IMG/VR virus record: IMGVR_UViG_3300045988_162287 | Length of the DNA: 55,761 nucleotides | From: a virus | Strand: one strand, 5' to 3' | Notes under the pieces: model-generated | Told to the model about the DNA's origin: nothing | Databases searched by the model: none | Seen by the model: the letters and a program-made list of their open reading frames with translations, nothing else | Shown: positions 1,039 to 49,537 of the stretch, piece by piece | Layout: every line of letters begins with the position of its first letter | How positions within the stretch are numbered: the first letter of the stretch is position 1 | Translations under genes and position numbers: made by a program

Positions 1039-1359
1039 ATGAGTCTGGAACGCGACTTCCAACGAAAAGTCATCAAGGAGATCGGCAAACGTCTTCCGGG
1101 ATCGCGTGTGCTGAAGAACGATCCCAACTATATTCAGGGAATCCCCGATCTTCTCGTTTTGTATAAGGATCGATGGGCCGCCCTTGAGGTCAAGAAGAGT
1201 GCTGACGCTAAGCATCAGCCGAATCAGGATGACTACGTGGCTCAGATGAATGCCGACTCATTCGCGGCGTTCATCTATCCCGAGAACAAGGAATACGTTC
1301 TCGACAAGCTTCAACAGCACATGACCGAATCCCATATTTCCACGGAGGTTGCAGCATGA
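1039..1359 (+). CDS. VRR-NUC / PD-(D/E)XK nuclease (Holliday-junction-resolvase-like)
   Basis: GIPDLLVL...ALEVKK gives the D...ExK catalytic signature; about 106 aa; GAAAGGAG RBS. Confidence 0.6.
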   Translation: MSLERDFQRKVIKEIGKRLPGSRVLKNDPNYIQGIPDLLVLYKDRWAALEVKKSADAKHQPNQDDYVAQMNADSFAAFIYPENKEYVLDKLQQHMTESHISTEVAA

Positions 1360-1988
1360 TGCGTTTCAATGATCATCACAATCTTGAGGGCCTTCACGCC
1401 TTCATGGGGGCCAGCAAGCATTCATGGCTCCGTTATGATGACGATCATATGGCCGATATGTTCCGATCGTCCCTTGCGGCACAACGCGGAACCGAGCTGC
1501 ATGCTCTTGCTGCCGATCTTAACAAACATCGTGTGGCTCTGCCGAAGACCCATCTGACGTTGAACGACTTCGTCAATGATGGCCTGCATTATCGCATGTC
1601 TCCCGAAGTGGTGTTGTATTTCTCGCCAAATTGTTTCGGCACCGCAGACCTCATCGGATACGACGACAAGAAGAAGCTGTTGCGCATCTTCGACCTCAAG
1701 ACCGGAAGCGGCGAAGTCAAGCACTTCGATCAGTTGTATATCTACGCTTCGCTGTTCTGTCTTGAATACAAAGTCAAGCCGATGAACCTTCAGTTCGACC
1801 TTCGTCTCTATCAGAACGATCACATCAAGATCGCCACCAACGCCGATCCCAAGTATATCAAGCTTGGACCGAACGCTGATATTTACGAAGAGGTCAGCCC
1901 GGATGAGATCGCACACATCATGGATCGAATCCAGCACTTCGATCAATTGATCAACAAGCTGCGTGCCGAGGAATCGGAGCAGTGGTAA
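1356..1988 (+). CDS. RecB/Cas4-like PD-(D/E)XK exonuclease (DUF2800-like)
   Basis: GTADLIGY...RIFDLKTG...QLYIYASL matches the D / DxK / QxxxY RecB-nuclease motifs; ATGA-type overlap with the upstream gene. Confidence 0.6.
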   Translation: MMRFNDHHNLEGLHAFMGASKHSWLRYDDDHMADMFRSSLAAQRGTELHALAADLNKHRVALPKTHLTLNDFVNDGLHYRMSPEVVLYFSPNCFGTADLIGYDDKKKLLRIFDLKTGSGEVKHFDQLYIYASLFCLEYKVKPMNLQFDLRLYQNDHIKIATNADPKYIKLGPNADIYEEVSPDEIAHIMDRIQHFDQLINKLRAEESEQW

Positions 1989-2013
1989 TGATATTTTCAG
2001 GAAAGGCAGCGTC

Positions 2014-21600: not shown

Positions 21601-24277
21601 CGCATCGGCGTTCGGATCGTTCACTCAATACGACTGGGGCGAAATCGGACGTGGTCTGACGGCCATGGGTGGTGCTCTCGGCGAGGTTGGCGTCATATCC
21701 GGCGCTTTGGGTAAACTCGCTGGTTTGTCCGGAATCATCGGATCTGGCTCCATAGTTCTTACTGCTCAGGGTCTTGGTGATATCGCCCAAGCGTTCAATT
21801 CGTTCTCTCAGTATAGCTGGGATGAGATCGGACGCGGCCTTACCGCCATGGGCGGCGCTCTCGGCGAGGTCGCGGTCGTTAGCGGTGCATTGGGTAAACT
21901 CGCTGGTTTGTCCGGATTGATCGGAGCCGGCACAATCAACCTCACCGTGCAAGGTCTTGACGAGATTGCCCAAGCGTTCAATTCGTTCTCTCAGTATAGC
22001 TGGGATGAGATCGGACGCGGCCTTGTTGCCATGGGCGGTGCCATGGGCGAGGTCGCCGCCATATCCGGAGCGACAGGTGCCCTGACCGGAATCGCTGGTC
22101 TGATGGGTGCCGGTACGATTACACTCGCTTCGCAAGGCCTGATCGATCTGGCGACCGCATTCGGTAAGTTCGCCGAATTCAATTGGGATGAGATCGGTAG
22201 GGGTCTGACGGCCATGGGCGCCGCGATGGGCGAGACCGCGCTTGGCGGCCTGCTCAACACCTTCTCCGGATTCGGTGCCAGTGCCATCGAGAAGATGGCC
22301 GCTCCGCTCGGAACGCTCGCTGATTCCATTAAGAAGTGGGAAGGCGTGGCCGTTCCGGACGATCTGGCCGATCAGCTCGGAAGGATCGCCGATGGCGTAG
22401 GCAAGTTCACGATGGCTGGATGGGGCAGCGATACCGTTGCCAACATCGCCCAGCCGATGAACGTCCTCGCTGATGCGGTGGCCAAGTGGTCGACGATCAC
22501 GTTCCCGACCGATATCGCAACGCAGCTTGGCTCGTTGGCCAGTGGAGTCGAGGCGTTCACACTGGCCTTTGCTGGTGGATGGTCGCTCAATGCCGTGGTC
22601 GGTCCGCTTGGAACGCTCGCCGATTCCGTTAAGAAGTGGGACGGCGTTGAGGTTCCCGGTGGCATTCAAGGCAATCTCACCGCTCTTGCGAACGGCGTGA
22701 AGGCGTTCACGCTTGCATTCGCCGGCGGCTGGTCGATTGACGCCGTCATTGGCCCCTTGGGACAACTGCCAGGGGCCGTTAAGAAGTGGAACGGCGTGGA
22801 GGTTCCTGGCGGCATTCAAGGCAATCTTACCGCTCTCGCCAATGGTGTGAAAGCGTTCACGCTGGCCTTCGTTGGTGGATGGTCGATAAATGCAGTCATT
22901 GGCCCTTTGGGACAACTGGCAGGGGAAGTCAAGAAATGGAACGGCGTTGAGGTTCCTGGAGGAATTCAAGGCAATCTTACCGCTCTCGCTAATGGCGTGA
23001 AGGCGTTTACTGGTATTGGATCCGGGATCGCGGAATCCATGTCAAATGCCGCTTCCGGGGTTCGATCCATTGCTACGGCGGCAACTAGTTTGTCGGCGGC
23101 GAACCTGTCTGGTGTATCGAAGCAGATTTCGAATTTCATCACTTCGCTGAACAACACACCGGCAGTGACGAGCACCCTTCCGGATCAGCTCAAATCCTTC
23201 GCGACCAACCTGTCGACATCGATGCAGAACATCGCCACCGCGATTTCGACCAACGGATCAACCATATCCGCTGGATTCACGCAGTTCAAGGCATCGGTTA
23301 CCAATGGATTGTCCGGGGTTGGATCCATCGTCAGCCAGAACATGTCGAGTATGTCCACCGCCATCATCGGCGCCACCTCGACCATCAACGGCGGATTGCA
23401 TTCAATCGTCAGTGTCGTACTGGCCTTCGCCGGAAGTATGAGGAACGCCCTTAACGAGTCGACAACATCGACGGCGGCCGGACTTCGGGCCACGGTGAAC
23501 AGGATCGATTCTTTCCAGTCACAGTTCCGCACGGCCGGTCAACATCTAGCTGATGGTCTGCTGAACGGCATGCGATCGAATTCATCACAGTTCGCCGGAG
23601 TGTTCTCATCGTCCGTCAATCAGGCCGTTAACAGCGTCAGAGGATATTATAACGGATTCTATAACACCGGACGATATCTCGTCGAGGGATTCACCAACGG
23701 CATAAATGATTACGCGAGATCAGCGGCCGCCGCAGCGGCCAATATGGCCAGTTCGGCCAAGACGGCTGCCGATCGCACCTTGGATGTCGGTTCCCCGTCG
23801 AAGGTCATGATGCAGGTCGGTCGATTCTTCACCGAAGGATTCTCGATCGGCATTACTGATCGAGAGGACATGGTCAGCGATTCTTCCGAGAAGGTCGCGC
23901 AGAAGGCGATATCCACGTTGAATGACATGCTGGCGACATCATCGATCGACGATCTGTTCGACGCGAGTCCGACGATCACCCCGGTGCTTGACCTAAGTGC
24001 CATCAGCAAGCAGGCTGGATCGATCGATTCGATGTTGTCGAGATCCATCGCTCCGTCAGAGACCGAGCTCAGGGAAATCGATCGTCGATTCCGTCAAAAT
24101 GAGAGTGGTTCTCGGACAACGGAGAAGGATACGAGCGGTCCGAAGTCGGTCAACATCGAATACAACCAGACGTTGAATTCGCCGACCAGTCTCAGTCGTT
24201 ATGATATTTACCGACAGACATCGAACCAACTCAAACTCCTTCGTCAGGAATTGAAAATGTCACCTATAGGAAAGTAG
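18695..24277 (+). CDS. Tape measure protein (about 1,860 aa) with several internal tandem repeat families
   Basis: Very long, Ala/Gly-rich, helical and repeat-rich ORF upstream of the distal tail protein; ATG 18695 overlaps the upstream stop. Confidence 0.9.
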   Translation: MSSIDERVVKMRLDNSQFEQGVNKTSGLLGKLKQALNLDKSVESISNVDKAVNGVSFNPLTSGLQGVQSGFNAMGAVAFSVLNRMTNAAIDAGKSITNALTASVRDGFAEYETQMNAVQTILANTQSKGSTIDDVNSALDTLNTYADKTIYNFTEMTRNIGTFTAAGVDLQTSVDSIKGIANLAAVSGSSSAQASQAMYQLSQAIAAGKVQLMDWNSVVNAGMGGEVFQNALKRTAENFGTNVDGMIQKYGSFRESLTEGGWLTTDVLTETLKQLSGAYTEADLVSQGYTEEQAKQIVQLANTAEGAATDVKTFSQLIDTTKEALGSGWTNTFEIIFGDFEEAKELWSGVANVISDVVNRSSESRNNLLQGWKDLGGRTELIEGLSNVFESLGKVLSTVGNAFRKVFPPTTSQQLMDITKAFASFTESLVPSESTLNKIGRVAEGVFSVFDIGVQAVKAVGEAISTAFGSDSMGSLLNNLLDIAAGFGDWLVGLDNSIKQFGIFEGAAKKVETAVSSVLGLFSSFTGRISSMGSTIGSIASTIGSTIGSIASTIGNTLGGAFERVKNVISDVLTWITDNISGGDIFAGLAGGGIFLAAQKIGGAFDKIKEAVEGLFGNGAEKLKKGAGVFDEILDGLQESLNAFTGSVKAFTLVEIAGSIALLVNSMEKIAALSGGEVVGGVSAIGGMMTELNLSLKSITKTVKGVKTTDLIKTGAALIEFAKAVDMLANAMSTIGNLKWDEIAKGLTGMGGAMAELVAAAKGLSYAKVDLKTAGSLIAMAQAVKMVADPLKKLGNMSWDQVGKGLSAMGGALTEMGTVTGLLGRFGKHNISAAVSMVVTAKSLGDIAKAFNSFSQYSWDEIGRGLSAMGGALGEVGLVTGALGKIAGFSGILASGSIFITVQSLDDIAKVFGSFTQYDWGEIGRGLAAMGGALGEVGLVTGALGKLAGFSGIIGGGSILITAQSLGDIASAFGSFTQYDWGEIGRGLTAMGGALGEVGVISGALGKLAGLSGIIGSGSIVLTAQGLGDIAQAFNSFSQYSWDEIGRGLTAMGGALGEVAVVSGALGKLAGLSGLIGAGTINLTVQGLDEIAQAFNSFSQYSWDEIGRGLVAMGGAMGEVAAISGATGALTGIAGLMGAGTITLASQGLIDLATAFGKFAEFNWDEIGRGLTAMGAAMGETALGGLLNTFSGFGASAIEKMAAPLGTLADSIKKWEGVAVPDDLADQLGRIADGVGKFTMAGWGSDTVANIAQPMNVLADAVAKWSTITFPTDIATQLGSLASGVEAFTLAFAGGWSLNAVVGPLGTLADSVKKWDGVEVPGGIQGNLTALANGVKAFTLAFAGGWSIDAVIGPLGQLPGAVKKWNGVEVPGGIQGNLTALANGVKAFTLAFVGGWSINAVIGPLGQLAGEVKKWNGVEVPGGIQGNLTALANGVKAFTGIGSGIAESMSNAASGVRSIATAATSLSAANLSGVSKQISNFITSLNNTPAVTSTLPDQLKSFATNLSTSMQNIATAISTNGSTISAGFTQFKASVTNGLSGVGSIVSQNMSSMSTAIIGATSTINGGLHSIVSVVLAFAGSMRNALNESTTSTAAGLRATVNRIDSFQSQFRTAGQHLADGLLNGMRSNSSQFAGVFSSSVNQAVNSVRGYYNGFYNTGRYLVEGFTNGINDYARSAAAAAANMASSAKTAADRTLDVGSPSKVMMQVGRFFTEGFSIGITDREDMVSDSSEKVAQKAISTLNDMLATSSIDDLFDASPTITPVLDLSAISKQAGSIDSMLSRSIAPSETELREIDRRFRQNESGSRTTEKDTSGPKSVNIEYNQTLNSPTSLSRYDIYRQTSNQLKLLRQELKMSPIGK
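20291..20356 (+). repeat. Perfect 33-bp tandem duplication inside the tape measure gene
   Basis: ggatccaccatcggatcgatcgcttcgacaatt x2, encoding GSTIGSIASTI twice. Confidence 0.9.
20860..22260 (+). repeat. About eight tandem 180-bp (60-aa) repeats in the tape measure gene (approximate bounds)
   Basis: Recurring (Y/F)SWDEIGRGL.AMGGALGEVG...GALGKLAG.SGI...Q.L.DIA.AF.SF.Q units at about 180-nt spacing (for example 21241, 21421, 21601, 21781, 21961). Confidence 0.8.
22307..23020 (+). repeat. About five tandem 150-bp (50-aa) repeats in the tape measure gene (approximate bounds)
   Basis: LG.L...VKKW.GVEVPGGIQGNLTALANGVKAFTLAFAGGWSI.AVIGP units repeated head to tail. Confidence 0.8.
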
Positions 24278-24285
24278 TGGTCTCA

Positions 24286-25197
24286 ATGTTCAGGTCCATG
24301 ACAGTGATCAATGATCGAAACGAAAGTCTGACCATTTCGCTCGCCGACCCTCGGGAGAGCGGATATTTGATCTCCGGCATCGATGGTCTTGGGCCAACGA
24401 AAGCCACTCTGTGGCATTCCGAATCGGTCACCTCCGATGGTTCCGTCTTTAATGGAGCAAGAAAGGAATCGCGTGACATCACCATCACGCTTGCCTATCT
24501 ATGGGATGCCAATCACAGCATCGAGGAGTTGCGTCATAGGATCTACCGATATTTTCCGGAGAAACGAACCGTAACACTCATCTTTGAGACCGATACCAGA
24601 CGGGTGAAGACCGTCGGGCATGTCGAGAGCAACGAGGTGTCCATATTCACGAGTCAGGAGGCGTCGGCGATCACGATCAGATGTGCGGATCCGTGGTTTG
24701 AAGACGCCTCCGAGGTCTCGGAGATCGTCACGCAGTTCTCGACAGTGGAGTCGCTGTTCGAATTCCCGTTCCCGATAGCCGGTGACACCTTTGAATTCGG
24801 CAATATCAGCGTCGATCATTCGAAGATCGTCCAGTACGACGGTGAAGCCGAGGTCGGCGTCATCATCACTGTCGAACTCACCGGACCGGTTTCTAATCCC
24901 TCATTCTACAACGAGGATTGGGACGAGTCGATCCTGATCTACACCGATAAGGTTAAGAGCATCATCGGATCCGATCTCCAGTCGGGGGATCAGATCATCA
25001 TATCGACCGTTTCCGGAAAAAAATACGCAAGAATCCGTAGGGAGGGCATCGATTACAACGTTCTCAACGCCATCGACAGGGCTGTGAGTTGGATTACACT
25101 GTATCCTGGAAACAATGTCATCACCTATATGGCCGAATCAGGTATCGATAACATGATGGTGTCCGTATCCAGTAAGATTCTTTACGCCGGAGTGTGA
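24286..25197 (+). CDS. Distal tail protein (Dit, siphovirus tail family)
   Basis: Immediately after the tape measure gene; SLTISLADPRESGYLISGIDGLGPTKATLWHSES...GARKESRDITITLAYL fits the Dit N-terminal pattern. Confidence 0.7.
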   Translation: MFRSMTVINDRNESLTISLADPRESGYLISGIDGLGPTKATLWHSESVTSDGSVFNGARKESRDITITLAYLWDANHSIEELRHRIYRYFPEKRTVTLIFETDTRRVKTVGHVESNEVSIFTSQEASAITIRCADPWFEDASEVSEIVTQFSTVESLFEFPFPIAGDTFEFGNISVDHSKIVQYDGEAEVGVIITVELTGPVSNPSFYNEDWDESILIYTDKVKSIIGSDLQSGDQIIISTVSGKKYARIRREGIDYNVLNAIDRAVSWITLYPGNNVITYMAESGIDNMMVSVSSKILYAGV

Positions 25198-25199
25198 TC

Positions 25200-26408
25200 A
25201 TGGCGAAACGAATGGAATTTTTCGTACTGGACAAATCGTTTAAGGTCATCGACATCGTCGATGAGTTTGAATCGGTTATTTGGACCGAGCGGTTCTCGGC
25301 TTATGGCGATTTCGAATTCTACGTTCGGGCGAGTATCGAGAATATCCAACGGTTCCCGAAAGGATATTATCTGTTCTATCCCGATTCCGTATCGACCATG
25401 GTGATCGATCAGGTGAAGATCACCAGCAATCTCGAAGATGGAGATCATCTTGTCGTGAGCGGTCGTTCCTTGGAGTCGCTTCTGTTGAGACGAGTCATTC
25501 CGAAGAAAGTCACGTACAAAGGCGATATTCAGATCGCAATTCAGACGATTCTGAACGAGAATGTCATCAAGCCAACGGAAGCACGACGGAAGATCGACAA
25601 CTTCGTTTTTGAAAAGAACAACGATCTTCCTGACACTTCGTCGGAGACCGATGATGGATACGAATTCGATGGCGACACCGTATACGACGCCGTCAAGACG
25701 ATTCTCGACTCCAAGAAATACGGATTCCGTCTTAGTTTGGCAACGGCCGACCGTTGGATCGATACGAAAATGACGTTTCGCATCATAAACGGAACCGATC
25801 ATTCATATGAACAGGATAAGAATCCATATGTGATATTTTCATCGAATTACGGAAATCTGGTTTCATCGGACACCACTATGGACTATCGTGAACTCTATAA
25901 CGCCGCATACGTCGGCGGGTCCGAGACACGAAACGATGATGGTTCGACGAAACGTCTGGTCGCCTATGTCCCAAATGAGGACGGATCTATCGGATGGGAT
26001 TATCACGAAACGTTCTATGGCGGACTATCGGTCCAGCAAAACGATGATGAGGGAAAACCGCTTCCGGATTCCACGGTACTTAACTCCCTCAAATCGGAAG
26101 GAAGGAAGGAACTCAAAAAGGTTGGTTCCGGTATCACCTTCGATGCAGAGGTATCATCAACTACTGGCATGGTCTACAACGAAGATTACACTATCGGTGA
26201 TATTGTGCAATTCGAGAACGCCTATAACATGGCGTATCCGGCCAAGATCACCGAGTATATTCGTAACTGGGATACCAATGGATACAGCGAGTATCCGACA
26301 TTGGAGACGATCGTCGATTCCTTGACATCGATCGATGATTCCTCCGGATTACCGATTCGAGATTCCACCGACAACACCTTGCATTCCTCGGTGAAGATAG
26401 ACGATTAA
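25200..26408 (+). CDS. Minor tail / baseplate protein (siphovirus Gp37-like)
   Basis: FESVIWTERFSAYGDFEFYV...VIDQVKI motif characteristic of the Gp37-like family; follows Dit. Confidence 0.6.
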   Translation: MAKRMEFFVLDKSFKVIDIVDEFESVIWTERFSAYGDFEFYVRASIENIQRFPKGYYLFYPDSVSTMVIDQVKITSNLEDGDHLVVSGRSLESLLLRRVIPKKVTYKGDIQIAIQTILNENVIKPTEARRKIDNFVFEKNNDLPDTSSETDDGYEFDGDTVYDAVKTILDSKKYGFRLSLATADRWIDTKMTFRIINGTDHSYEQDKNPYVIFSSNYGNLVSSDTTMDYRELYNAAYVGGSETRNDDGSTKRLVAYVPNEDGSIGWDYHETFYGGLSVQQNDDEGKPLPDSTVLNSLKSEGRKELKKVGSGITFDAEVSSTTGMVYNEDYTIGDIVQFENAYNMAYPAKITEYIRNWDTNGYSEYPTLETIVDSLTSIDDSSGLPIRDSTDNTLHSSVKIDD

Positions 26409-26425
26409 CCAGAAAGGAGTAAGCC

Positions 26426-27088
26426 ATGGCCGTTACCTCAGGATTTTTCAATTCCTCGAACCATGATCGTGTGTACAACAATATTCAGATGGGGCAGATT
26501 TTCGATGGCATCATCAACGATGGCGTGCTTCCGAATTTCGAGGACCATCTGGTCGTTAAGTCGGGAAGCGGCATGCAGGTCATTGTCGGATCCGGTCGAG
26601 CCTGGTTCAATCATACATGGACCTATAATTCCACCGATCTTCCGTTGACGATCGATTCTGCGTCGGCCACTCAGGACCGTATCGATGCCGTGGTGCTTCG
26701 GGTCGATACCTCATTGGCGGTCAGGGCCAATAGTATTCTCATCAAGAAGGGAACACCAAGCGGAAGTCCACAACGTCCGACTATGACCAAGACGTCGGAT
26801 ATTTCCGAATATCCCTTGGCGTACGTTAAGGTCGCTCATGGTACCATGAACATCACCTCCGCCGACATCACCAACGCCATCGGCACGAGCGCATGTCCTC
26901 TGGCGACGCTGGTCGAGAACACCTTTGACGCCGATACCATCATCAGACAGTGGCAGGCGCAATTCGACGACACCATGGAGTCCAACAAAAAGGAGTGGCA
27001 CGAGCTCATCGAGAGTGTCGTGACCGATCCGTCGGCCATCACGTCGATCCCCAACTCCGTCATCGACGACATGTTCGTCATTCACTAA
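26426..27088 (+). CDS. Tail fibre / baseplate-associated protein
   Basis: MAVTSGFFNSSNHDRVYNNIQMGQIFDGIINDGV N-terminus common in Gram-positive phage tail tip proteins; lies in the tail module. Confidence 0.45.
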   Translation: MAVTSGFFNSSNHDRVYNNIQMGQIFDGIINDGVLPNFEDHLVVKSGSGMQVIVGSGRAWFNHTWTYNSTDLPLTIDSASATQDRIDAVVLRVDTSLAVRANSILIKKGTPSGSPQRPTMTKTSDISEYPLAYVKVAHGTMNITSADITNAIGTSACPLATLVENTFDADTIIRQWQAQFDDTMESNKKEWHELIESVVTDPSAITSIPNSVIDDMFVIH

Positions 27089-27101
27089 GGAAGGAATCAT
27101 T

Positions 27102-28010
27102 ATGAGAATTTTGGACCAAAGCGACAACGAGATCCAGCCGGAGGACGTGGACTATCGTCTCGGCAAGCTCTCCGATGACAAGATCTTCATTCAGCACCAC
27201 GATGCCGTCGAAGCCGTTGAGGAGCAGGGCCATTACGAGACCCTTCAGGAGTATCCGAACGGCGGTAAGGACGTCGAGTGGAAGGTGGACGTTCCAGGCG
27301 TCGAAGCCAAGGAAGCCTGGGACGAATACGAGGATATTCAGCGCTACACCAAGTTCACCGCTGAGGAACTCAAGGCCAATGCCGAGCGTGAGGCGCAGGC
27401 AGTGGAACAGCAGGAGATCCAGAAGGCCGTCATGGCCTCCTTTCGGATGCTGATTCAGCCGATGCTGGCCAGCATGCCGGTCGAGGATCTGAAGGCCGTG
27501 TCGGCTCTGGTTCCGGAGTGGACTGTCGGCACCGAATACAAGACCGGTGATATTGTCCGGTATAAGGGCGTTCTGTACCATTGCCTTCAGAACGACACCG
27601 CCCAGGAGATCTTCCCGCCGGATACCTACATCTCGGGATGGAAGCACGTCGATGAGCCGGACGAGCATGGCATCCATCCGTTCAGCCAGCCGCTTGGTGC
27701 TACGGACGCCTACATGAAGGGTGACAAGTTGTCCTTCGAAGGCGCCTATTATCGGTCGAACATCGACTATAATGTCTGGTCGCCGACCGCCTATCCGCAA
27801 GGCTGGACCAAGTTGGATAGCACCGGCGAAAGCCCGGAACCAGGTGGCGATGATAACGAGTATCCGGCATTCGTCCAACCGACCGGCGCCCATGACGCAT
27901 ACAATATCGGCGACAAGGTGACGTATAACGGCCATCGCTACGAGTGCACGATGAACAGCAACGCCTATTCGCCGGATGCCTATCCGCAGGGATGGAAACA
28001 GATCGACTAA
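27102..28010 (+). CDS. Tail protein with three CBM5/12-like carbohydrate-binding repeats
   Basis: YKTGDIVRYKGVLYHCLQ...GWKHV; YMKGDKLSFEGAYYRSN...YPQGWTKL; YNIGDKVTYNGHRYECT...YPQGWKQI. Confidence 0.6.
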   Translation: MRILDQSDNEIQPEDVDYRLGKLSDDKIFIQHHDAVEAVEEQGHYETLQEYPNGGKDVEWKVDVPGVEAKEAWDEYEDIQRYTKFTAEELKANAEREAQAVEQQEIQKAVMASFRMLIQPMLASMPVEDLKAVSALVPEWTVGTEYKTGDIVRYKGVLYHCLQNDTAQEIFPPDTYISGWKHVDEPDEHGIHPFSQPLGATDAYMKGDKLSFEGAYYRSNIDYNVWSPTAYPQGWTKLDSTGESPEPGGDDNEYPAFVQPTGAHDAYNIGDKVTYNGHRYECTMNSNAYSPDAYPQGWKQID

Positions 28011-28021
28011 GGAGATGACGT

Positions 28022-28960
28022 ATGGCACGTCTTAATACCTACACCCGCACTTCGCAACCGTCAGATTCGGACGTGTTCGTCATCGATAGCACGACTGGTT
28101 CGGCGGGCACCAGGACGGTGCTTTGGTCCTCGATTAAAGCGCTGTTCGCCGCGGCCAAGCACAGTCACGCCGCTACGGACATCACCAGTGGCACGCTGAC
28201 ACTCGACCGACTTCCCACGATCCCTCTGGCCAAGGGAGGCACCGGAGCAACGTCGGCCGCAACGGCCCGTACGGCTCTCGGCGTCCAGAATCCGATTACC
28301 GCCGCCAACGCTCTGACGAATCAGAATCTGAATTCGTACAATGCGGTGGAGCACTGCGGATGGTATTACGCCGGAGGCGGCAACTCTGTGACCAATAAGC
28401 CGTCAGGCGTCGAGCATTTCGGTATGTTCGTCATGCAGACGGCGTCGGGTGTGCTCACTCAGATCCTGTACGATAACTCCGGCAAGATCTGGACGAGGTC
28501 GTATTTTAAGTCCGCATGGAGTACGTGGACCGCTCTGGTCCGAACGACCGATACGATCGCCAAGGCCACCAGCGCGACGAACGCCACCAACGCGACCAAT
28601 GCCACGAACGCCACCAAGGCGACGCAGGATTCTGCCGGTCAGACCATCAACACGACCTATGTGAAGTCCGTCACCGCATCAGGACGCACTGTCACGGTGA
28701 CCAAGGGCAACGGCACGACCTCGACGTTCACCACGCAGGATACGACCTATTCCGCGGCCACCCAATCGACGGCTGGTTTGATGTCGGCAGCCGACAAGAA
28801 GAAGCTCGACGGTCTGTCCGGCGATTACGGTTCGGCCATCGGAACGGCCACGTCCTCGAAGGACGGCCTGATGTCCAAGACCGACAAGGCCAAGCTCGAC
28901 AAATTCCCATCGGATGGTATGACCCGCATCAGCGAGGCCACCATTGACGGCATGTTCTAA
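28022..28960 (+). CDS. Tail fibre protein
   Basis: DRLPTIPLAKGGTGATSAATARTALGV, an (ATN)n tract, and GLMSAADKKKLDG / GLMSKTDKAKLDK repeats typical of phage fibres. Confidence 0.65.
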   Translation: MARLNTYTRTSQPSDSDVFVIDSTTGSAGTRTVLWSSIKALFAAAKHSHAATDITSGTLTLDRLPTIPLAKGGTGATSAATARTALGVQNPITAANALTNQNLNSYNAVEHCGWYYAGGGNSVTNKPSGVEHFGMFVMQTASGVLTQILYDNSGKIWTRSYFKSAWSTWTALVRTTDTIAKATSATNATNATNATNATKATQDSAGQTINTTYVKSVTASGRTVTVTKGNGTTSTFTTQDTTYSAATQSTAGLMSAADKKKLDGLSGDYGSAIGTATSSKDGLMSKTDKAKLDKFPSDGMTRISEATIDGMF

Positions 28961-28970
28961 GGAGATATTC

Positions 28971-29483
28971 ATGGTAAGCTACCTTGATCAGGATGGGGTC
29001 CAGCACCTCGTAGATAAAATGCTGGACCGGATGTACCCGGTCGATTCGATCTATATTTCCACCAATTCCACCAGCCCGGCGTCGCTGTATGGCGGCAGCT
29101 GGGAACGTTACGGTACCGGACGAGCGCTGATCAGCGCCTCCGATACCGATCCAGACTTCACCGCCGGCACCACCGGTGGAAGCAAGACGCATAATCATGC
29201 GTATGGTATTGTGTTTGGTACCGCTTATGGAATGACCGTATTGTCGGACAGTAGAGAATCACCACAAATTGGTATCGTTGATTATTCTATAACCGTTGGT
29301 AATCGTATTCGGAGACAAGGTATTCCACCTATCAATACGACCCGTATCGGTTTCGCAGATACGGTCTCTGGCTCATATGGCGAGAATAAACAACTGACCC
29401 TTCGAACCAGTGAAGGATTAACCAGGGAAACGTCATCAATGGAACCATACGTCGCTGTGTATGTATGGCGTCGAACGGCCTAG
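28971..29483 (+). CDS. Tail fibre tip / receptor-binding candidate whose C-terminal 95 aa lie inside a putative invertible segment
   Basis: AAGGAGA RBS. The constant N-terminus ends in GTTGGSKTHNH, encoded by the left 33-bp inverted repeat. The protein ends PYVAVYVWRRTA. Confidence 0.55.
   Translation: MVSYLDQDGVQHLVDKMLDRMYPVDSIYISTNSTSPASLYGGSWERYGTGRALISASDTDPDFTAGTTGGSKTHNHAYGIVFGTAYGMTVLSDSRESPQIGIVDYSITVGNRIRRQGIPPINTTRIGFADTVSGSYGENKQLTLRTSEGLTRETSSMEPYVAVYVWRRTA
29166..29198. repeat. Left arm of a perfect 33-bp inverted repeat (GGCACCACCGGTGGAAGCAAGACGCATAATCAT)
   Basis: The exact reverse complement is present at 29780-29812. The arm starts on a codon boundary of gene 28971. Confidence 0.95.
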
Positions 29484-29779
29484 GCGGTTCTTCTCCAGAC
29501 GTACACGGCAACGTAGGGGCTCAAGCTTGATTCCGTCTTTGTGTCGGTTTCGTATCGATATCGCTGAGCATGATATGGTTGGCCGGGTTGACCAATCATC
29601 GAACCTGACCCAATAACTGCTGTATTTTTATCTTCAAGCTTCGTCCATTCATGGAAACTGTCAATCGCTTCGCCGCTATCTTTGTCATACGAGACCAATC
29701 CGCTCCATACGGCTGGATGGGCATCAGTCGGAGCGATCAGGGTATGGCCATAGAACGATCCGACAGCGATTCCATACTT
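29480..29779 (-). other. Promoterless alternative C-terminal tail-fibre cassette (silent in this orientation)
   Basis: On the minus strand, reading in frame out of the right IR: KYGIAVGSFYGHTLIAP...SLSPYVAVYVWRRTA*. It has the same terminal 12 aa as the active gene but different codons. There is no matching N-terminus or credible RBS. Confidence 0.6.
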
Positions 29780-29812
29780 ATGATTATGCGTCTTGCTTCC
29801 ACCGGTGGTGCC
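29780..29812. repeat. Right arm of the perfect 33-bp inverted repeat
   Basis: atgattatgcgtcttgcttccaccggtggtgcc is the reverse complement of 29166-29198. Confidence 0.95.
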
Positions 29813-29921
29813 ATTATTCCTCCGGATGCTTCCGCAACGGGTTTTCTTATCCTTTTCCCGTCCCGAGGTCCGGAGGAGGGTTCTTTTATAAACATAAAGG
29901 ATGTATCGAAAGGAGTCCATC

Positions 29922-30368
29922 ATGCCCATGCCTCAATACAACGGCCCCATGTATTCCCAGGGACCGACCGCGGTGGGACCGTACAATTTGCAGGGTTATC
30001 AGTCGACGTTCGGATATAATCCGCAGCAGACCTATCTTCCTCAGACGCAACAGCCCCAGATGGCGACGCAGCAACCGCAGACGCCATCGTTGGTCGGCCG
30101 GATCGTCACCGCCAATGACCAGATCCCTCCGGCGGAGATCCCGTCGAACGGCACGCCCGCATATTTCCCTATGCAGGATGGGTCGGCCATCCTCGTCAAG
30201 GTCTGGAACGGGAATGGAACCATCAATACGGTCCGCTATATTCCGGAACCGGCTCAGCCCGCTCCTCAGCCGCAGCCTCAGGACAATTCGGCGCAGGAGG
30301 AGATCCTCAGGCGTCTGGAGTCGCTGGAGAACAAGCTTACCTCGCTTACGGACTCGCTGACGAACTGA
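29922..30368 (+). CDS. Hypothetical protein: Q/P/Y-rich N-terminus, beta-rich core, C-terminal coiled coil
   Basis: AAAGGAG RBS; MPMPQYNGPMYSQGP...QTQQPQMATQQPQ; ends EEILRRLESLENKLTSLTDSL. Confidence 0.5.
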   Translation: MPMPQYNGPMYSQGPTAVGPYNLQGYQSTFGYNPQQTYLPQTQQPQMATQQPQTPSLVGRIVTANDQIPPAEIPSNGTPAYFPMQDGSAILVKVWNGNGTINTVRYIPEPAQPAPQPQPQDNSAQEEILRRLESLENKLTSLTDSLTN

Positions 30369-30391
30369 TCGACGATATTCTGGAGGATCTC

Positions 30392-30598
30392 ATGCCCGGG
30401 CCTGAAGATATGTTCAAGCGGATGTTGCAGCAGAACCCTGCCGTCCGCAACAATCCCAACAATGCGCCGATTCTCAACGCCCTTGAGCGGAATGACGCCC
30501 AAACCGGCCAACAGTTGGCGCAGAATTATGTCAATACTTTAGGGATGGACTGGAACACCGCGCTCCAGCAAGCCAAGGCCTTCCTTGGACTTCCCTAA
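30392..30598 (+). CDS. Hypothetical small protein
   Basis: 68 aa, GGAGGA RBS. Confidence 0.45.
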   Translation: MPGPEDMFKRMLQQNPAVRNNPNNAPILNALERNDAQTGQQLAQNYVNTLGMDWNTALQQAKAFLGLP

Positions 30599-30642
30599 GG
30601 AAACAATAACAAACCAAAAATATCAATTAAGGAGGAACTATC

Positions 30643-31392
30643 ATGTTCGCTCCGAATAACCTCAGCGCCGCCGACGTGGCTGCCGTGACCGGTGGCCGGA
30701 ACAACGACGGTTTCGGTGATGGCAACGGTTGGTGGATCATCCTGATCGCCCTGCTGTTCGGCTGGGGACGCAACGGTGCGTTCGGCGGAGGTTACGGCGG
30801 CTGTTGCGCCTCGGCGACCTGCCAGGAGCTTCAGTCCGGCTTCAACAACCAGTCCGTGATGCAGATGCTCAACGGCATCAACTCGGGCATCTGCTCGCTG
30901 GGCTACGACAACGCCACGCTAGTCAACGGCGTGAATACCAACGTCATGCAGACCGGCTTTGGCATCACGAGCGCCATCCAGCAGGCCCAGTTCGCCCAGC
31001 AGCAGTCCGCTGCCGCCGCCCAGGCCCAGATGGCCGATTGCTGCTGCTCCATCCAGCGCGCGATCGACGGCGTGAACTACAACAACGCGCAGAACTTCTG
31101 CAACCTCGGCAACACGATGCAGTCTGTCGGCCGCGACATCATCGAGAACCAGAACGCGAACTACCGCGCTCTGCACGATGAGCTGGTGCAGTACCGCATC
31201 GAGGACAAGAACGACACCATCGCCGAGCTGCGTTCTCAGGTCCAGGCGCTCAACCTCGCGGCCTCGCAGTCGAACCAGAACACCTATCTGATCGACCGCC
31301 TCCAGCCGTGCCCGACCCCGGCCTACACGGTGCCGAATCCGAATGCGTACTACGGTTGCCAGCAGAACTGCTATCAGTCCTGCGGCTGCTGA
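30643..31392 (+). CDS. Gly-rich, Cys-rich membrane-anchored protein
   Basis: AAGGAGG RBS; GFGDGNGWWIILIALLFGWGRNGAFGGGYGGCC; cysteine clusters CCASATC, DCCCS and C-terminal GCQQNCYQSCGC; Q-rich coiled region. Confidence 0.55.
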   Translation: MFAPNNLSAADVAAVTGGRNNDGFGDGNGWWIILIALLFGWGRNGAFGGGYGGCCASATCQELQSGFNNQSVMQMLNGINSGICSLGYDNATLVNGVNTNVMQTGFGITSAIQQAQFAQQQSAAAAQAQMADCCCSIQRAIDGVNYNNAQNFCNLGNTMQSVGRDIIENQNANYRALHDELVQYRIEDKNDTIAELRSQVQALNLAASQSNQNTYLIDRLQPCPTPAYTVPNPNAYYGCQQNCYQSCGC

Positions 31393-32454: not shown

Positions 32455-32811
32455 ATGAACCCATGGGTCCAGACGATCGTCACCGTCGTATGCTCAGTGT
32501 TCGCTTCGTCTGGACTCTGGGCGTTCGTCACCACGGTCATCAACAATCGCAAAAAAAAGGACGATTCGGAGGACGAACGCATCGAGGCCATCGAGAAGAT
32601 GGTGCGGGGACTCGCTCACGCCAAGATCGTTGAGGTCGGCAAGCGTTATCTTGAGCAGAGCCGTATCACCCTCGATGACCTCGATGAATTCAACCATTAC
32701 CTCTATTACCCATACAGCGCCATGGGCGGCAACGGCTACGCAAAGAAGGTCGCTGAAGAGGTCAACAAGATTCCGCTCAATATCGTCGAAACCAAGAAGG
32801 AGGAGAAATGA
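32455..32811 (+). CDS. N-terminally membrane-anchored protein next to the holin (lysis accessory candidate)
   Basis: TM helix VQTIVTVVCSVFASSGLWAFVTTVI followed by a soluble domain; overlaps the holin start. Confidence 0.4.
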   Translation: MNPWVQTIVTVVCSVFASSGLWAFVTTVINNRKKKDDSEDERIEAIEKMVRGLAHAKIVEVGKRYLEQSRITLDDLDEFNHYLYYPYSAMGGNGYAKKVAEEVNKIPLNIVETKKEEK

Positions 32812-33110
32812 CCGATCAGAACACCGAACCGATTCCCGAGGAACCGACCGACGAGGTCTTCGATCCCGATTTCGTCCAGCAGGAGATCGTCCCGCTGCTC
32901 ATGTCGGACAAGACGTACAACATCATGAAGTGGATCGTGCAGTATATTCTACCCGGTCTCGGCGTGCTGTATGCCATCATCTCCGGCGTAACCGGACTTC
33001 CGTACGCGGAGGTCGTGCTGGCGGTCGTGATGGCCGTGGACTGGTTCCTGGGGATCATCCTGGGCATCAGCACGAAGCAATACAACAAATATATCGCCAA
33101 CAAGCAGTGA
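32808..33110 (+). CDS. Holin (Dp-1-type)
   Basis: KTYNIMKWIVQYILPGLGVLYAIISGVTGLPYAEVVLAVVMAVDWFLGIILGIS shows the two-TM pattern of Dp-1-family holins; it is the last gene of the late block. Confidence 0.6.
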   Translation: MTDQNTEPIPEEPTDEVFDPDFVQQEIVPLLMSDKTYNIMKWIVQYILPGLGVLYAIISGVTGLPYAEVVLAVVMAVDWFLGIILGISTKQYNKYIANKQ

Positions 33111-33122: not shown

Positions 33123-33161
33123 TTAAGAGGTCGTGACCATATCATGGCCTCTTAATTTTTT
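33123..33161 (+). terminator. Hairpin + T-run terminator closing the late block
   Basis: ttaagagg...cctcttaa followed by tttttt. The 50 bp at 33123-33172 are repeated exactly at 33447-33496. Confidence 0.7.
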
Positions 33162-33166
33162 GGCCT

Positions 33167-33197
33167 TTCGCGATAAAAACATGTCATATAATGAAGA
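33167..33197 (+). promoter_or_regulatory. Conserved promoter-like motif, copy 1 (TTCGCG-N14-TATAAT-GAAG)
   Basis: ttcgcgataaaaacatgtcatataatgaaga. Confidence 0.6.
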
Positions 33198-33222
33198 CCA
33201 TATTTCAACGAAAGGAGTAACA

Positions 33223-33429
33223 ATGGAATCGAAACTCATTGCTGATATCGTCATTCACGAAAAGTCGGATGAAGATCGGAATAGAGTCGCGCAATCGATA
33301 CACGAGCAGCTTTGCGGAAAGCGATCGTATATCGATAACGCCATCATTCTGAACATAGACGAACCGAAAACGATTCGAATCGCGATATTCGATGATTGCG
33401 AGAACATTGGAGAAATCCACATTCGATAA
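33223..33429 (+). CDS. Hypothetical small protein
   Basis: AAAGGAG RBS, 68 aa. Confidence 0.55.
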   Translation: MESKLIADIVIHEKSDEDRNRVAQSIHEQLCGKRSYIDNAIILNIDEPKTIRIAIFDDCENIGEIHIR

Positions 33430-33446
33430 CGATTAAAGTCCAAATG

Positions 33447-33485
33447 TTAAGAGGTCGTGACCATATCATGGCCTCTTAATTTTTT
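33447..33485 (+). terminator. Hairpin + T-run terminator (exact copy of 33123)
   Basis: ttaagaggtcgtgaccatatcatggcctcttaatttttt. Confidence 0.7.
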
Positions 33486-33490
33486 GGCCT

Positions 33491-33520
33491 TTCGCGTTGG
33501 AAACATGGACTATAGTGAAG
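33491..33520 (+). promoter_or_regulatory. Conserved promoter-like motif, copy 2
   Basis: ttcgcgttggaaacatggactatagtgaag. Confidence 0.6.
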
Positions 33521-37904: not shown

Positions 37905-38519
37905 ATGGCGGAAGTCGACAAGGAGACCTTCGACGTTTCGAGAGAAGCGTTGGGAATCGAACCGAATGCCGATAGACCGAGCGACGTCGATAAGGTCGTG
38001 CAAGGCGAAGTCGTTTGCAAAAAGAAAAATAAGGTCCAGAAGGTCACCGAGACATTTTTCGGCGGCGATCTTCGCGATGTGGCATCATATGTTGTCAAAG
38101 ACGTCATGATTCCTGCTGCCAAGGACATGCTCTACGACACCGTAGTCCAGGGATTCAGTCGTTTGATTTTCGGTGATGTTCGTCCGAGAAACAACTCTAC
38201 AAATCGAGGATATACCAGCTATTCATCGATGAGTCGGGATCGTTCAACAGGACAACGTGAGATCGAAGCCCGAAACCGTAACGACTTCGATGATATTACA
38301 TTCCGAGATCGTCGTGACGCCGAGGCGGTCATGGATACGTTGCGGGATACCATCGATCATTACGGTCAATGCAGCGTGGCCGATCTGCTCAAGGCGTCTG
38401 GTATATCCCCAAGATATACCGATTATGACATTGGATGGACTGATCTGGCACGGGCGAGCATCGCACGATATCGCGACGGCTATGTCCTCAATATGCCGAG
38501 AACCGAGAGCTTGCGATGA
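37905..38519 (+). CDS. Hypothetical protein
   Basis: GAAAGGAG RBS, 204 aa. Confidence 0.55.
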   Translation: MAEVDKETFDVSREALGIEPNADRPSDVDKVVQGEVVCKKKNKVQKVTETFFGGDLRDVASYVVKDVMIPAAKDMLYDTVVQGFSRLIFGDVRPRNNSTNRGYTSYSSMSRDRSTGQREIEARNRNDFDDITFRDRRDAEAVMDTLRDTIDHYGQCSVADLLKASGISPRYTDYDIGWTDLARASIARYRDGYVLNMPRTESLR

Positions 38520-39999: not shown

Positions 40000-40941
40000 A
40001 TGAATCTCAAGAGTATTGGGTTCGTAGTGGGTGGATTCGCCGCTGGTGCCGCTACGGCGACCGCCATGTTCTACTTCGGTATATACAAGCGGTATATTCC
40101 ACTGAAGGACCTCGAGCAAGAGATCGCCGATCTGGAACGTAAGAAGCATGAACTTAACCAGCAGTTCAAAGACAACCATGAGAAGTTCGTCAACGTCAAG
40201 CGGTCGACCGACGAGGCCATTAGGCGCAAGGAGCAGGAGCTTGACTTCTACGACGATCAGATCATCGAGGTGAAGAAGGAATGGGAGGCCGTCAAGGCCG
40301 CCAAGACGTATGGTGATCCCAAAGTCACCGAACAAAAGGATATTCCAGATGATCCCGATGACGAAAATGGCGATGAGCTCGATGACGATCCTGTTGACAT
40401 CGACGCCGACGAACCGGATCGGGATAATTTTATCATCGATGACGGCGTTCCGCGATGGGATGGTCCCCTTACCGATGACGAACAGCGTCAGTATGACGAG
40501 GCGAACGGGGACGAGCGCGTCGAGCAATCAATCCTCATGACGATCAAGGCGCGTCGCTGGCATCAGTCCATCGACCGTGACGATCCGAGCTACCAGATCT
40601 CCGAGGAGGATCACGAGAATGCCCCGTGGTTCATCGATACGGAGAATCTCGATTACTGGGAGGACGATGACGTGCTTGCCCGAGGAATGGAGATCGTTCA
40701 GGACCCGGATGCCATCATCAACACCATCGTGCTCAACAGGTTCGGAAGGTTGTCGCAGAGTGGCGATCCCAACGTCGTGTGGTGCAGGAATGATATTCTG
40801 GAGACCGACTACGAGATCACCCGGCATGACGGATCATATCAGCACGAGGTGCTAGGCATTCCTGAAGAGGAGTCATACCGACCCAAAAAGCGGTTCAATT
40901 CCACTATAGCGGCTGAAATGGAGGAGGTCAATGACAAGTAA
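40000..40941 (+). CDS. Membrane-anchored coiled-coil, highly acidic protein
   Basis: TM helix IGFVVGGFAAGAATATAMFYFGI, then a coiled coil and Asp/Glu-rich tracts. Confidence 0.5.
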   Translation: MNLKSIGFVVGGFAAGAATATAMFYFGIYKRYIPLKDLEQEIADLERKKHELNQQFKDNHEKFVNVKRSTDEAIRRKEQELDFYDDQIIEVKKEWEAVKAAKTYGDPKVTEQKDIPDDPDDENGDELDDDPVDIDADEPDRDNFIIDDGVPRWDGPLTDDEQRQYDEANGDERVEQSILMTIKARRWHQSIDRDDPSYQISEEDHENAPWFIDTENLDYWEDDDVLARGMEIVQDPDAIINTIVLNRFGRLSQSGDPNVVWCRNDILETDYEITRHDGSYQHEVLGIPEEESYRPKKRFNSTIAAEMEEVNDK

Positions 40942-41467: not shown

Positions 41468-41478
41468 AGGAGGCGAAG

Positions 41479-44840: not shown

Positions 44841-44943
44841 ATGAAAATGCCGGTGGTGACAATAGACAAGATCAAAGTCGTTCCGAGAAGCAGCTATTTA
44901 TCATACTGGTTCTCGCCTTGTTCATCTATGGGAGGTAAAAACA

Positions 44944-45294: not shown

Positions 45295-45300
45295 TGACCG

Positions 45301-46484: not shown

Positions 46485-46506
46485 ACACTACAAAAGGAGT
46501 TCATCC

Positions 46507-48605: not shown

Positions 48606-48914
48606 ATGATCCAATTCCCGCCAATGGAGACCTTCGACGACGGTGAACTCGACGATGGCAAGAAGCTGGCGAAGAAGGTGCTGGAGGAATCGGCCGAACT
48701 GATGGTCGCCTCGCAGCACGATACGCGTGAGCACATGCTGGATGAATTCGCGGACGTCCTCCAGACGCTGGTGAACTTCTACAAGTACTCTGGCATCACC
48801 AATGAGGAAATCGCCTCGGCCATTAAGCGCTGCAACGAAAAGAACATTGCGCGAGGCCGGATGACCGATCCGAGACCGTTCGTCGATCGAGTGACCACGT
48901 TCGCCGCAAAGTGA
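48606..48914 (+). CDS. mazG: MazG-like nucleotide pyrophosphohydrolase
   Basis: VLEESAELMVA...MLDEFADVLQTLVNF matches the EE..EL / DE.ADVL metal-binding helices of MazG-type NTP-PPases. Confidence 0.6.
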   Translation: MIQFPPMETFDDGELDDGKKLAKKVLEESAELMVASQHDTREHMLDEFADVLQTLVNFYKYSGITNEEIASAIKRCNEKNIARGRMTDPRPFVDRVTTFAAK

Positions 48915-48949
48915 TATTTTCTAACCAAACCAACGAAAGGAACAGAATA

Positions 48950-49537
48950 ATGGCAGTCGAAAAGTATGTGGATTCCCGTGGTCGTGTGTCGTACCGCATT
49001 CGTGGGGCGAAACTCATCTATCCGAACTTCGCCGGTAACGGAGGTCAGTTCAATGATGAGGGCAATCGCAACTTCAACATTGAGCTGACTCAGGACGAAT
49101 TTGATTTCCTGACCGACGAGGGGTTCCGTCCCCGCATGCGTGAGAAGATCGACGCTGATCCTCAGCTCCTGCTCAAGGTCAACGTCAAGTTCAAGGACGA
49201 TCCGGCCGATACAAGGAATCCGAAGATCCTGTTCAAGACCCAGTACGGCAACAAGCGCCTGTGGGCCGAACATAAGAAGGCCGTGGTGCAGGGTGAGGAG
49301 ATCGACCTCAGCCCGGTTGATATTCTGGACTGGGCCGACATCGAGAACGTCAATCTGTCGTTCTCCGCATACCGCGGTAAGATGTCGGATCACAACACCG
49401 CATATTTGCAGATGCTCATCGCAACCAAGCATGAGGATCCGTTCGAGGACGAGTTCTATGACAACGACGAACCGGATACGGCCCTCAACACCATGACCTT
49501 CCAGAAGGTCGATGCGGACCTGAAGTCCATCGAGTAA
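48950..49537 (+). CDS. Single-stranded DNA-binding protein candidate (DUF2815/gp2.5-like)
   Basis: About 195 aa, AAAGGAA RBS, OB-like beta pattern, acidic DPFEDEFYDNDEPD segment, located in the replication module. Confidence 0.4.
   Translation: MAVEKYVDSRGRVSYRIRGAKLIYPNFAGNGGQFNDEGNRNFNIELTQDEFDFLTDEGFRPRMREKIDADPQLLLKVNVKFKDDPADTRNPKILFKTQYGNKRLWAEHKKAVVQGEEIDLSPVDILDWADIENVNLSFSAYRGKMSDHNTAYLQMLIATKHEDPFEDEFYDNDEPDTALNTMTFQKVDADLKSIE

Follow-up and report, generated by a model that had tools for sequence, protein, structure and literature searches.

Ever since the work on phages Mu and P1, textbooks have described how tail fibres are switched by DNA inversion, mostly in temperate phages; to our knowledge, the known tail-fibre inversion switches always come with a cognate invertase. 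Here we describe a locus in the IMG/VR virus record IMGVR_UViG_3300045988_162287 (55,761 nt; this whole stretch of DNA is referred to below as the window), in which two cassettes, each encoding an alternative distal half of a tail-tip protein, face each other between perfect 33-bp inverted repeats. From comparative sequence analysis we regard the locus as a recurrently used two-state switch of this distal half, and we lean modestly towards a mechanism that would be driven by homology and operate without a dedicated sequence-specific invertase. As in the Mu G/Gin, P1 C/Cin, e14 P/Pin and p15B Min systems, the inverted repeats lie inside a tail-protein reading frame, a constant N-terminal part is fused in frame to alternative C-terminal parts of which one is expressed and the other silent, and the presumed pay-off is an alternative host range. 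Unlike in those systems, no invertase gene was found in the complete genome, the segment is shorter (0.58 kb against ~3–4 kb) and lacks chaperone genes, the repeat varies between relatives with its arms co-varying, the phage has no integrase or recognizable lysogeny gene, and the protein is a 170 amino acid (aa) tip of the Gp10_C fold, not a long fibre. The initial annotation of this DNA had likened the locus to Mu G, P1 C and the shufflons. The likeness holds for function and not for family membership: the locus embodies the idea of Mu G, P1 C, Min and Rin outside those families, and its novelty is a phage tail switch with no recognizable invertase.

A related type of rearrangement is known from bifidophages, in which the Rin shufflon works with a tyrosine invertase encoded next to it and with rix sites of 11 bp, and in which an orphan inversion in tRNA-Met-integrated prophages flips ~500 bp at the 8-bp sequence CAGGGTTA (Mavrich et al. 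2018, PMC6109161). Like the Rin shufflon, the window locus is linked to Actinobacteria and swaps the C-terminus of a tail/receptor-binding protein by means of cassettes of ~95–100 aa; like the orphan locus, it is an inversion on the ~500-bp scale with no flanking recombinase. It differs from both in its repeats, which are 27–36 bp long (to 68 bp in a second system described below) and evolve in concert, and it differs from the bifidoprophages in lacking an integrase and any close prophage relative that we could find. Gene-altering programmed inversions have also been surveyed in the genomes of bacteria, and annotations of recombinases and invertases proved to be enriched close to the predicted loci (Milman et al. 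2023, PMC9881135). The window locus shares with these the asymmetry between a gene and a truncated pseudogene, repeats within coding sequence, and a phage tail protein as target, a class enriched in that survey; as in a gene-altering inversion or intragenic inverton, a full gene is paired with a 5′-truncated inverted copy through a common coding repeat. Unlike the surveyed loci, it lies in a free phage genome in which no recombinase was found.

Inversion by general recombination between long inverted repeats produces the L/S isomers of herpesviruses. Anabaena cyanophages have a ~30-kb invertible region for which no dedicated recombinase has been identified and whose orientation does not track phylogeny (bioRxiv 10.64898/2026.02.14.705889). 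These isomerizations resemble the window locus in that inverted repeats recombine with no dedicated recombinase identified, but their repeats are at least 400–700 bp long, they flip tens of kb and they remodel no reading frame, whereas here ~30-bp repeats, about ten times shorter, flip 0.58 kb and rewrite one protein. The diversity-generating retroelements of gut phages also act on the receptor-binding C-terminal region of a tail protein; unlike these, the window locus has two discrete alleles and no mutagenesis, and we found neither a reverse transcriptase in Pfam and PHROGs scans nor a direct repeat of the template/variable kind in the window. In the literature we found no description of this phage lineage, nor of any tail switch that does without an invertase in a phage lacking lysogeny genes.

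The tail-tip gene is paired with an inverted alternative C-terminus

The perfect inverted repeat consists of GGCACCACCGGTGGAAGCAAGACGCATAATCAT at 29166–29198 on the (+) strand and its exact reverse complement at 29780–29812. When mismatches are allowed it reaches 44 nt at 93% identity (29166–29209/29769–29812). It is the longest perfect inverted repeat of the genome, the runner-up being 17 nt, and no match with three or fewer mismatches arose in 100 dinucleotide shuffles of the window. The left arm lies in frame within the tip gene and codes for GTTGGSKTHNH, and on the (−) strand the right arm codes for the same 11 aa followed by a different tail, all as initially annotated, apart from the length of this tail, which is 99 aa and not the 100 aa first given. 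We refer to the expressed and the silent C-terminal segments as cassettes A and B, respectively (Table 1). They share only ~35% aa identity, and both terminate in PYVAVYVWRRTA using different codons, such that merely 27 of 36 nt are identical there. Their stop codons overlap tail to tail, and this 4-nt overlap was found in 19 of 20 systems. Because the flank outside the right arm has no homology to the constant part of the tip gene, the outer edge of the repeat is sharp.

Inverting 29199–29779 in silico yields an in-frame protein of 175 aa, which is 94–95% identical over its full length to natural 175-aa proteins (166 of 175 residues in the case of the relative L023); the exact inversion behind this in-frame swap of the C-terminal half is present in natural relatives. 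The (−) strand copy is a silent cassette, as had been proposed. That it has no usable ribosome-binding site is likely but not certain, as GAGG stands 7–10 nt 5′ of the ATGs of this open reading frame (ORF).

The 170-aa protein matches Pfam family Gp10_C (PF21939) over residues 17–169 (E = 4.7e-19, 70.1 bits, gathering cutoff 27), the C-terminal domain of T4 gp10 (PDB 2FKK, E = 8e-5), and tail and baseplate-wedge families in PHROGs. The alternative state retains the domain, since natural proteins of 173–175 aa that join the constant part to cassette B also carry PF21939. An AlphaFold2 model from a 23-sequence alignment was too poor to use (predicted local distance difference test score, pLDDT, 46). 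Given its position, its diversity and its homology to a gp10/gp12-type head fold, the variable half is presumably the receptor-binding part. The G+C content of cassettes A (0.46) and B (0.50) is lower than that of the constant part and neighbouring tail genes (0.57–0.59), which suggests a different origin or different constraints.

The segment has inverted repeatedly among related phages

The exact 33-mer had no match in IMG/VR, and relatives were therefore collected by protein search. This recovered 170-aa proteins consisting of the constant part and cassette A, over 50 clusters of 173–175-aa proteins consisting of the constant part and cassette B, and many clusters of orphan ORFs of 141 and 118 aa in which cassette A follows unrelated sequence, i.e. 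occupies the silent position. Behind one of these orphan ORFs is L023, a 54-kb contig that is ~97% identical to the window over 24001–29209; in this contig 29166–29812 is reversed at 97.7% identity, and collinearity resumes afterwards.

We then typed the cassettes in 40 related loci. Every one of the types T0–T4 was seen fused to the constant part and also silent: cassette A (type T2) is fused in seven loci and silent in four, and cassette B (type T1) is fused in nine and silent in nine. Opposite orientations were seen across samples in near-identical genomes. For the T2/T1 pair L001 and L023, identity was 98.1% in the upstream flank, 96.3% in the reversed segment and 100% in the downstream flank; the corresponding values were 95.9%, 98.8% and 100% for the T2/T3 pair L005 and L012. 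The T1/T0 pairs gave 98.0%, 99.3% and 90.7% (L034 and L038), 98.3%, 98.1% and 98.5% (L037 and L038) and, in a second sub-lineage, 97.0%, 96.3% and 98.7% (L011 and L029). Further pairs in opposite orientation are the window and L023 (T2/T1), and L028 and L034 (T1/T0). The breakpoints of all these inversions fall in the repeat. With three cassette pairs inverted, and T1/T0 in two sub-lineages, there have been at least four independent inversions. As judged from these metagenome assemblies, this shows that the segment has flipped repeatedly in nature and that both cassettes have been kept functional.

Cassettes presently in the silent position are intact. The ratio of non-synonymous to synonymous substitution rates (dN/dS) was below 1 in every cassette comparison, and pairs of silent copies gave 0.18–0.39, no higher than expressed copies. 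By this measure silent cassettes are under purifying selection.

Three contigs were considered as assembly bubbles from a minority orientation and rejected. The short contigs L080 and L081, from different samples, begin at the same flank position, a pattern that fits strain mixtures better than proof of heteroplasmy. The third, L024 (581 bp, ERZ28615235), is merely a fragment with a nonsense codon; its expressed cassette A has a premature stop (TCA to TAA), which could reflect a defective variant or a sequencing error.

The repeat arms evolve in concert

Arms were compared across the 38 unique switches whose perfect repeat measures 18 bp or more (27–36 bp in most). Their repeats represent 24 distinct strings and 10 or more core haplotypes, and the two arms are identical within each genome. 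Haplotype differences are both synonymous and non-synonymous (e.g. GGCACCACCGGTGGAAGCAAGACG versus GGCAAAGCCGGCGGAGAGAAGACG), and the repeat differs between relatives at up to about one third of positions. On this comparison, the two arms of a switch are evolving in concert. Arms that are identical within genomes yet diverse across them point to a homology tract, not to a protein-binding site. A crossover at a fixed 2–8-bp core exchanges sequence without copying mutations between arms and so leaves their concerted evolution unexplained, whereas heteroduplex repair in homologous recombination, or template switching, does copy mutations and is consistent with it. Template switching between inverted repeats is reported to homogenize the arms and to invert the spacer (PMC8604942).

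The C-terminal ends of the same cassette pairs provide an internal control for coding constraint. There, an equally conserved 12-aa motif differs at 7–12 of 36 nt in every genome, which argues that protein constraint alone does not yield nucleotide identity. Synonymous divergence of these tail-to-tail motifs may well be favored, since with identical codons the junction would become a perfect 70-bp palindrome.

Many relatives (L002, L005, L009, L011, L016, L019 and L040–L054) have a second, tandem tip gene with its own switch. The window has one switch only; two in tandem would allow up to four tip combinations. The second-switch repeat is unrelated in sequence (TAT[A/C]TCGGAGGCTCCTGGGAGGCGTATGCTCCCGGAAG...), encodes YIGGSWEAYAPGRTLVGVDEKHP and lies 22 codons further upstream in the domain; it spans 26–68 bp, with a fixed outer edge and co-varying arms. 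Its cassette Y is silent in L040, L045–L047 and L052 and expressed in L055 and L056. L016 and L019 each combine two switches built on one motif type; between these switches the repeat families differ at 9 of 27 nt, and within each switch the arms are identical. This is unlike a shufflon, where all sites share one core. Under a homology rule, the divergence between the repeat families would insulate the two switches from each other. The 37-bp repeat over a different motif in a distant homologue (L071, described below) also speaks for homology over site specificity. In L026, the first switch has been removed by an illegitimate deletion and a frameshift; P0040/L026 had been considered as a marker of a fixed cleavage point, and such an event is uninformative on mechanism.

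No site-specific recombinase is recognizable in the genome

We searched Pfam and/or PHROGs with about 70 ORFs of the complete circular genome; where a minus-strand ORF was spurious, plus-strand alternatives were included. In agreement with the initial annotation, which had found no serine or tyrosine recombinase, these scans returned no member of the Resolvase, Phage_integrase, DDE, IS110 or other site-specific recombinase families. In two relatives, Pfam annotation of the surroundings of the locus (20 kb and 12.7 kb) likewise revealed no recombinase, and Rfam and tRNA scans, in which guide-RNA-type elements were sought, returned nothing. The only invertase-flavored signals (HTH_7-like, and a PHROG labelled 'DNA invertase') are weak helix-turn-helix matches inside a 944-aa protein (1963–4797, +). 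This protein matches phrog_4291 over its full length (bit score 1188.6; labelled 'RNA-dependent RNA polymerase' in PHROGs), which we take to be the YonO-like single-subunit phage RNA polymerase family. Both ends of the protein bear helix-turn-helix motifs of the sigma-70 region 4 type, which are all that Pfam detects.

As in the serine-invertase systems, a segment bounded by inverted repeats lies in a tail ORF and carries alternative C-termini; no Resolvase match (PF00239; paired with HTH_7 in those invertases) turned up in the ~70 ORFs, which leaves no invertase gene to harbour a Fis-dependent recombinational enhancer, and no 26-bp crossover site with two imperfect half-sites around a 2-bp core, as in gix/hix, is recognizable as conserved across haplotypes. 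For the tyrosine-invertase shufflons (Rci, Rin), the same ORFs hold no gene of the Phage_integrase family, the rix sequence TTCCCTAACCC is absent from the window, and CAGGGTTA occurs once per strand in the window (29991 and 5485), not at the arms. Because both a cognate recombinase and conserved crossover sites are absent, the locus is not a member of the serine or tyrosine invertase families.

The genome does encode proteins for other DNA transactions. A PD-(D/E)XK exonuclease (Table 1) is a candidate phage factor for general recombination, and a phage single-stranded DNA (ssDNA)-binding protein, for which a sequence search of PDB found nothing significant, is a candidate annealing partner. 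Beside an endonuclease and a DEAD-box helicase, there are a D5-like primase-helicase, an HNH endonuclease (44340–44840) and a DNA polymerase fragment. The HNH gene, which is I-HmuI-like (homing endonuclease), stands within 41413–46401 between the D5-like primase-helicase and the polymerase ORF, and the latter matches a DNA polymerase PHROG over just the C-terminal third of that family; this region may be a split or intron-interrupted replication gene.

A proposed homology-driven switch and its alternatives

The constant 65-aa N-terminal part leads into an 11-codon junction (GTTGGSKTHNH), an inverted copy of which follows 581 bp downstream; between the two copies lie two convergent, unrelated C-terminal cassettes with overlapping stop codons. 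In the mechanism that we propose, recombination between the arms would invert the segment and fuse the constant part in frame to the other cassette, leaving the replaced cassette promoterless on the opposite strand. The product would in either state be a small, trimeric-type tail-tip protein with the fold of the T4 gp10 C-terminal domain. Inversion could be driven by general recombination, involving host RecA-type functions and/or the phage exonuclease, ssDNA-binding protein, helicase and nuclease, or by replication template switching between perfect arms of ~27–36 bp, and the accompanying heteroduplex repair would keep the arms identical. Rare inversions, with selection upon a change of host surface, might be enough for host-range bet-hedging. 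The initial annotation had reasoned that switching would need a host enzyme or an unrecognized phage one. This list was incomplete, as arm evolution points more to homology-dependent recombination: inversion by homology, with gene conversion, would fit the arm data better than a sequence-specific invertase.

Several observations weigh against this reading. Repeats of 27–36 bp are near the lower limit for efficient homologous recombination, as judged by minimal efficient processing segment values in E. coli. CCGG.GG and AAGAC.CAT are invariant across all haplotypes of the first system, and the repeat always covers the same coding motif; coding constraint explains this invariance, and a short recombinase core could lie there. 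The arms are mismatched in L013, L015 and L018, and L006 has no repeat, from which it follows that gene conversion is not absolute and that decay also occurs. Several phage ORFs of 150–410 aa have no detectable family. The evidence on orientation comes from assemblies of different samples, not from a single population, and the receptor-binding role of the variable half is one that we infer.

A broader and more tentative form of the homology-driven reading is that of a recombinase-free contingency locus. Here a ~30-bp repeat, barely of sufficient length for homology-dependent recombination and kept perfect by conversion, would be the whole site, the general replication and recombination machinery of the phage (exonuclease, ssDNA-binding protein, helicase and nuclease) would be the enzyme, tandem switches would be insulated by repeat divergence, and the C-terminal motifs would be synonymously divergent so as to avoid a lethal palindrome. 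If this were true, protein-rewriting inversions could evolve wherever a conserved motif is duplicated in inverted orientation.

The main rival is a site-specific DNA invertase of the host, chromosomal or from a prophage, that would work in trans on the repeats of the infecting phage. We regard this as possible, although rather unlikely. Global invertases such as Mpi of Bacteroides do act in trans, the phage itself has no recognizable recombinase, the breakpoints always fall within the repeat, and the invariant CCGG.GG...AAGAC could conceal a core site. In addition, the closest isolate infects Bifidobacterium, and an invertase acting in trans has been proposed for the ~500-bp tail-gene inversion of bifidoprophages that lacks a flanking recombinase (Mavrich et al. 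2018, PMC6109161). However, crossover at a fixed 2–8-bp core does not produce repeats that diverge between relatives by up to about one third of their positions and yet keep identical arms, and the repeat of the second tandem switch (26–68 bp) is unrelated. Neither of the published sites TTCCCTAACCC and CAGGGTTA occurs at the locus, and the arm shows no internal dyad symmetry that is conserved across haplotypes; the palindrome CCACCGGTGG inside the arm was considered as a recombinase core and rejected, being specific to the haplotype of the window and absent from most others. Nor was a close prophage relative found among 185,579 species genomes (one genome each).

A recombinase or nuclease of a new family, encoded by the phage among its unassigned ORFs, could also catalyze the inversion, which we consider doubtful. 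Many ORFs have no family match (37905–38519, 40000–40941, 51838–52464, 46411–46947 and the DUF7211 paralogues 5754–6989 and 9764–10507), and the HNH endonuclease could start recombination by a break. Yet none of these ORFs is linked to the cassette, and repeat diversity, the two repeat families and the co-variation of arms weigh against a phage enzyme as they do against a host one. Bifidobacterium phage BitterVaud1, compared at these genes, has tandem Gp10_C genes but no inverted cassettes.

The fossil that the initial annotation had allowed for (one ancient inversion with a decaying silent copy), or an assembly artefact, is very improbable and largely refuted: although the comparison is limited to metagenome assemblies and some relatives do show decay (no repeat in L006, deletion and frameshift of the first system in L026, the nonsense codon in cassette A of L024), the at least four independent inversions separate genomes that are 96–99% identical, opposite orientations recur in assemblies of relatives, silent cassettes are intact with a silent dN/dS of 0.18–0.39, each fusion is present in dozens of independent assemblies, and the 33-bp repeat is shorter than assembler k-mers (99-nt overlap here, k141 contigs elsewhere), so that single reads span it and fix the orientation.

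If the homology-driven switch is confirmed, host-range bet-hedging would be open to phages without lysogeny genes at almost no genetic cost, and the orphan inversions previously seen in bifidophages would be explained. Searches for invertons that are anchored on recombinases would undercount such loci, and ~30 bp would be a minimal design for switchable receptor-binding modules in phage engineering. In studies of the gut virome, what look like different 'strains' at this locus may reflect phase states and not lineages.

Genome, lineage and tail module

The first 99 nt of the window (1–99) recur identically at 55663–55761, which indicates that the assembly is circular and complete (or bears the signature of a terminally redundant genome). 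Its G+C content is 51.7%, and essentially all genes are on one strand. The lineage is widespread in the human gut, with dozens of metagenomic genomes of 53–60 kb and hundreds of protein clusters. The nearest cultured phage is BitterVaud1, whose large terminase is 71% identical, followed by phages of Gordonia and Streptomyces; the two Gp10_C genes of BitterVaud1 stand in tandem. The host is probably an actinobacterium. Pfam and PHROGs scans of the ORFs found neither an integrase nor another recognizable lysogeny gene in the window, and the phage is probably virulent, since no integrase was found. A near-DNA search with 28000–31000 found no match among 50,697 GenBank phages. In the scan of species genomes, relatives were at most 36% identical over the full length and came from Bacillota metagenome-assembled genomes (MAGs) only, and one alone, the Clostridia MAG contig L071, had a repeat. 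There, a distant Gp10_C-like/tail-collar-like gene has a perfect 37-bp inverted repeat (192–228/593–629) that covers its own KLTINEMPSHSH motif (...EMPSHSH); the same architecture may have arisen independently.

The tip gene is the last of a siphovirus-type tail module, following genes for the tape measure, Dit, a Gp37-like tail protein, a 220-aa protein, a CBM_5_12-repeat protein and a 312-aa fibre-like protein. Judging from gene order, the fibre-like protein is probably capped by the tip protein. The coordinates of the locus and of the genes discussed above are collected in Table 1.

Table 1. Features of the invertible tail-tip locus and selected genes of the window
Feature	Coordinates	Strand	Remarks
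Tip gene, 170 aa	28971..29483	+	Constant N-terminal half and cassette A, expressed; ATG after AGGAG; PF21939
Constant N-terminal part, 65 aa	28971..29165	+	Never inverted; 92–96% identical in relatives irrespective of cassette
Left repeat arm, 33 bp	29166..29198	+	GTTGGSKTHNH; inversion breakpoint inside (L023 alignment changes strand within 29166–29209)
Cassette A (type T2)	29199..29483	+	94 variable aa and stop; now expressed
Cassette B (type T1)	29480..29779	−	99 variable aa and stop; now silent
Overlapping stop codons of A and B, CTAG	29480..29483		Tail to tail; centre of imperfect palindrome from the two codings of PYVAVYVWRRTA
Right repeat arm	29780..29812	−	Exact reverse complement of left arm
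Whole invertible unit, 647 bp	29166..29812		581 bp between arms
Outer flank of right arm	29813..29921		Intergenic; no homology to constant part in arm alignments
Fibre-like protein, 312 aa	28022..28960	+	Directly upstream of the tip gene in the tail module
Endonuclease	1039–1359
PD-(D/E)XK exonuclease	1356..1988	+	phrog_3953 exonuclease, E = 1.7e-63; weak DUF2800 and PDDEXK_1 matches
Phage ssDNA-binding protein	48911..49537	+	PF24083 Phage_ssDNA_bind, E = 2.9e-21
DEAD-box helicase	53796–55052

Other observations

The region adjoining the switch is hypervariable. About 1.16 kb downstream of it (30225–31389), comprising a 68-aa ORF and the gene for a 249-aa protein with a Cys-rich C-terminus (phrog_16490), is missing from L023. 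In L026, the start of gene 29922 is joined directly to the ...QQNCYQSCGC end, forming a mini-ORF of 22 aa.

Further downstream, a perfect 50-bp direct repeat (33123–33172 and 33447–33496) contains a terminator-like hairpin and brackets a 98-aa ORF (33133–33429) with a G+C content of 0.41. L023 and most relatives checked have one copy of this repeat and lack the 98-aa ORF, and more copies occur downstream in relatives; 33123–33496 looks like a place where moron cassettes are shuffled via short repeated regulatory sequences.

The endolysin gene (GH25, CW_7 and LysM; 17262–18311, +) is placed between the head genes and the tape-measure gene, and a Dp-1-type holin is encoded 14 kb away at 32808–33110. 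Finally, three paralogues (5754–6989, 9764–10507 and 11219–11710, +) that are interleaved with the terminase and portal genes share a 25-aa DUF7211 motif, and in two of them this motif is encoded by a perfect 38-bp direct repeat (5775–5812/9995–10032).

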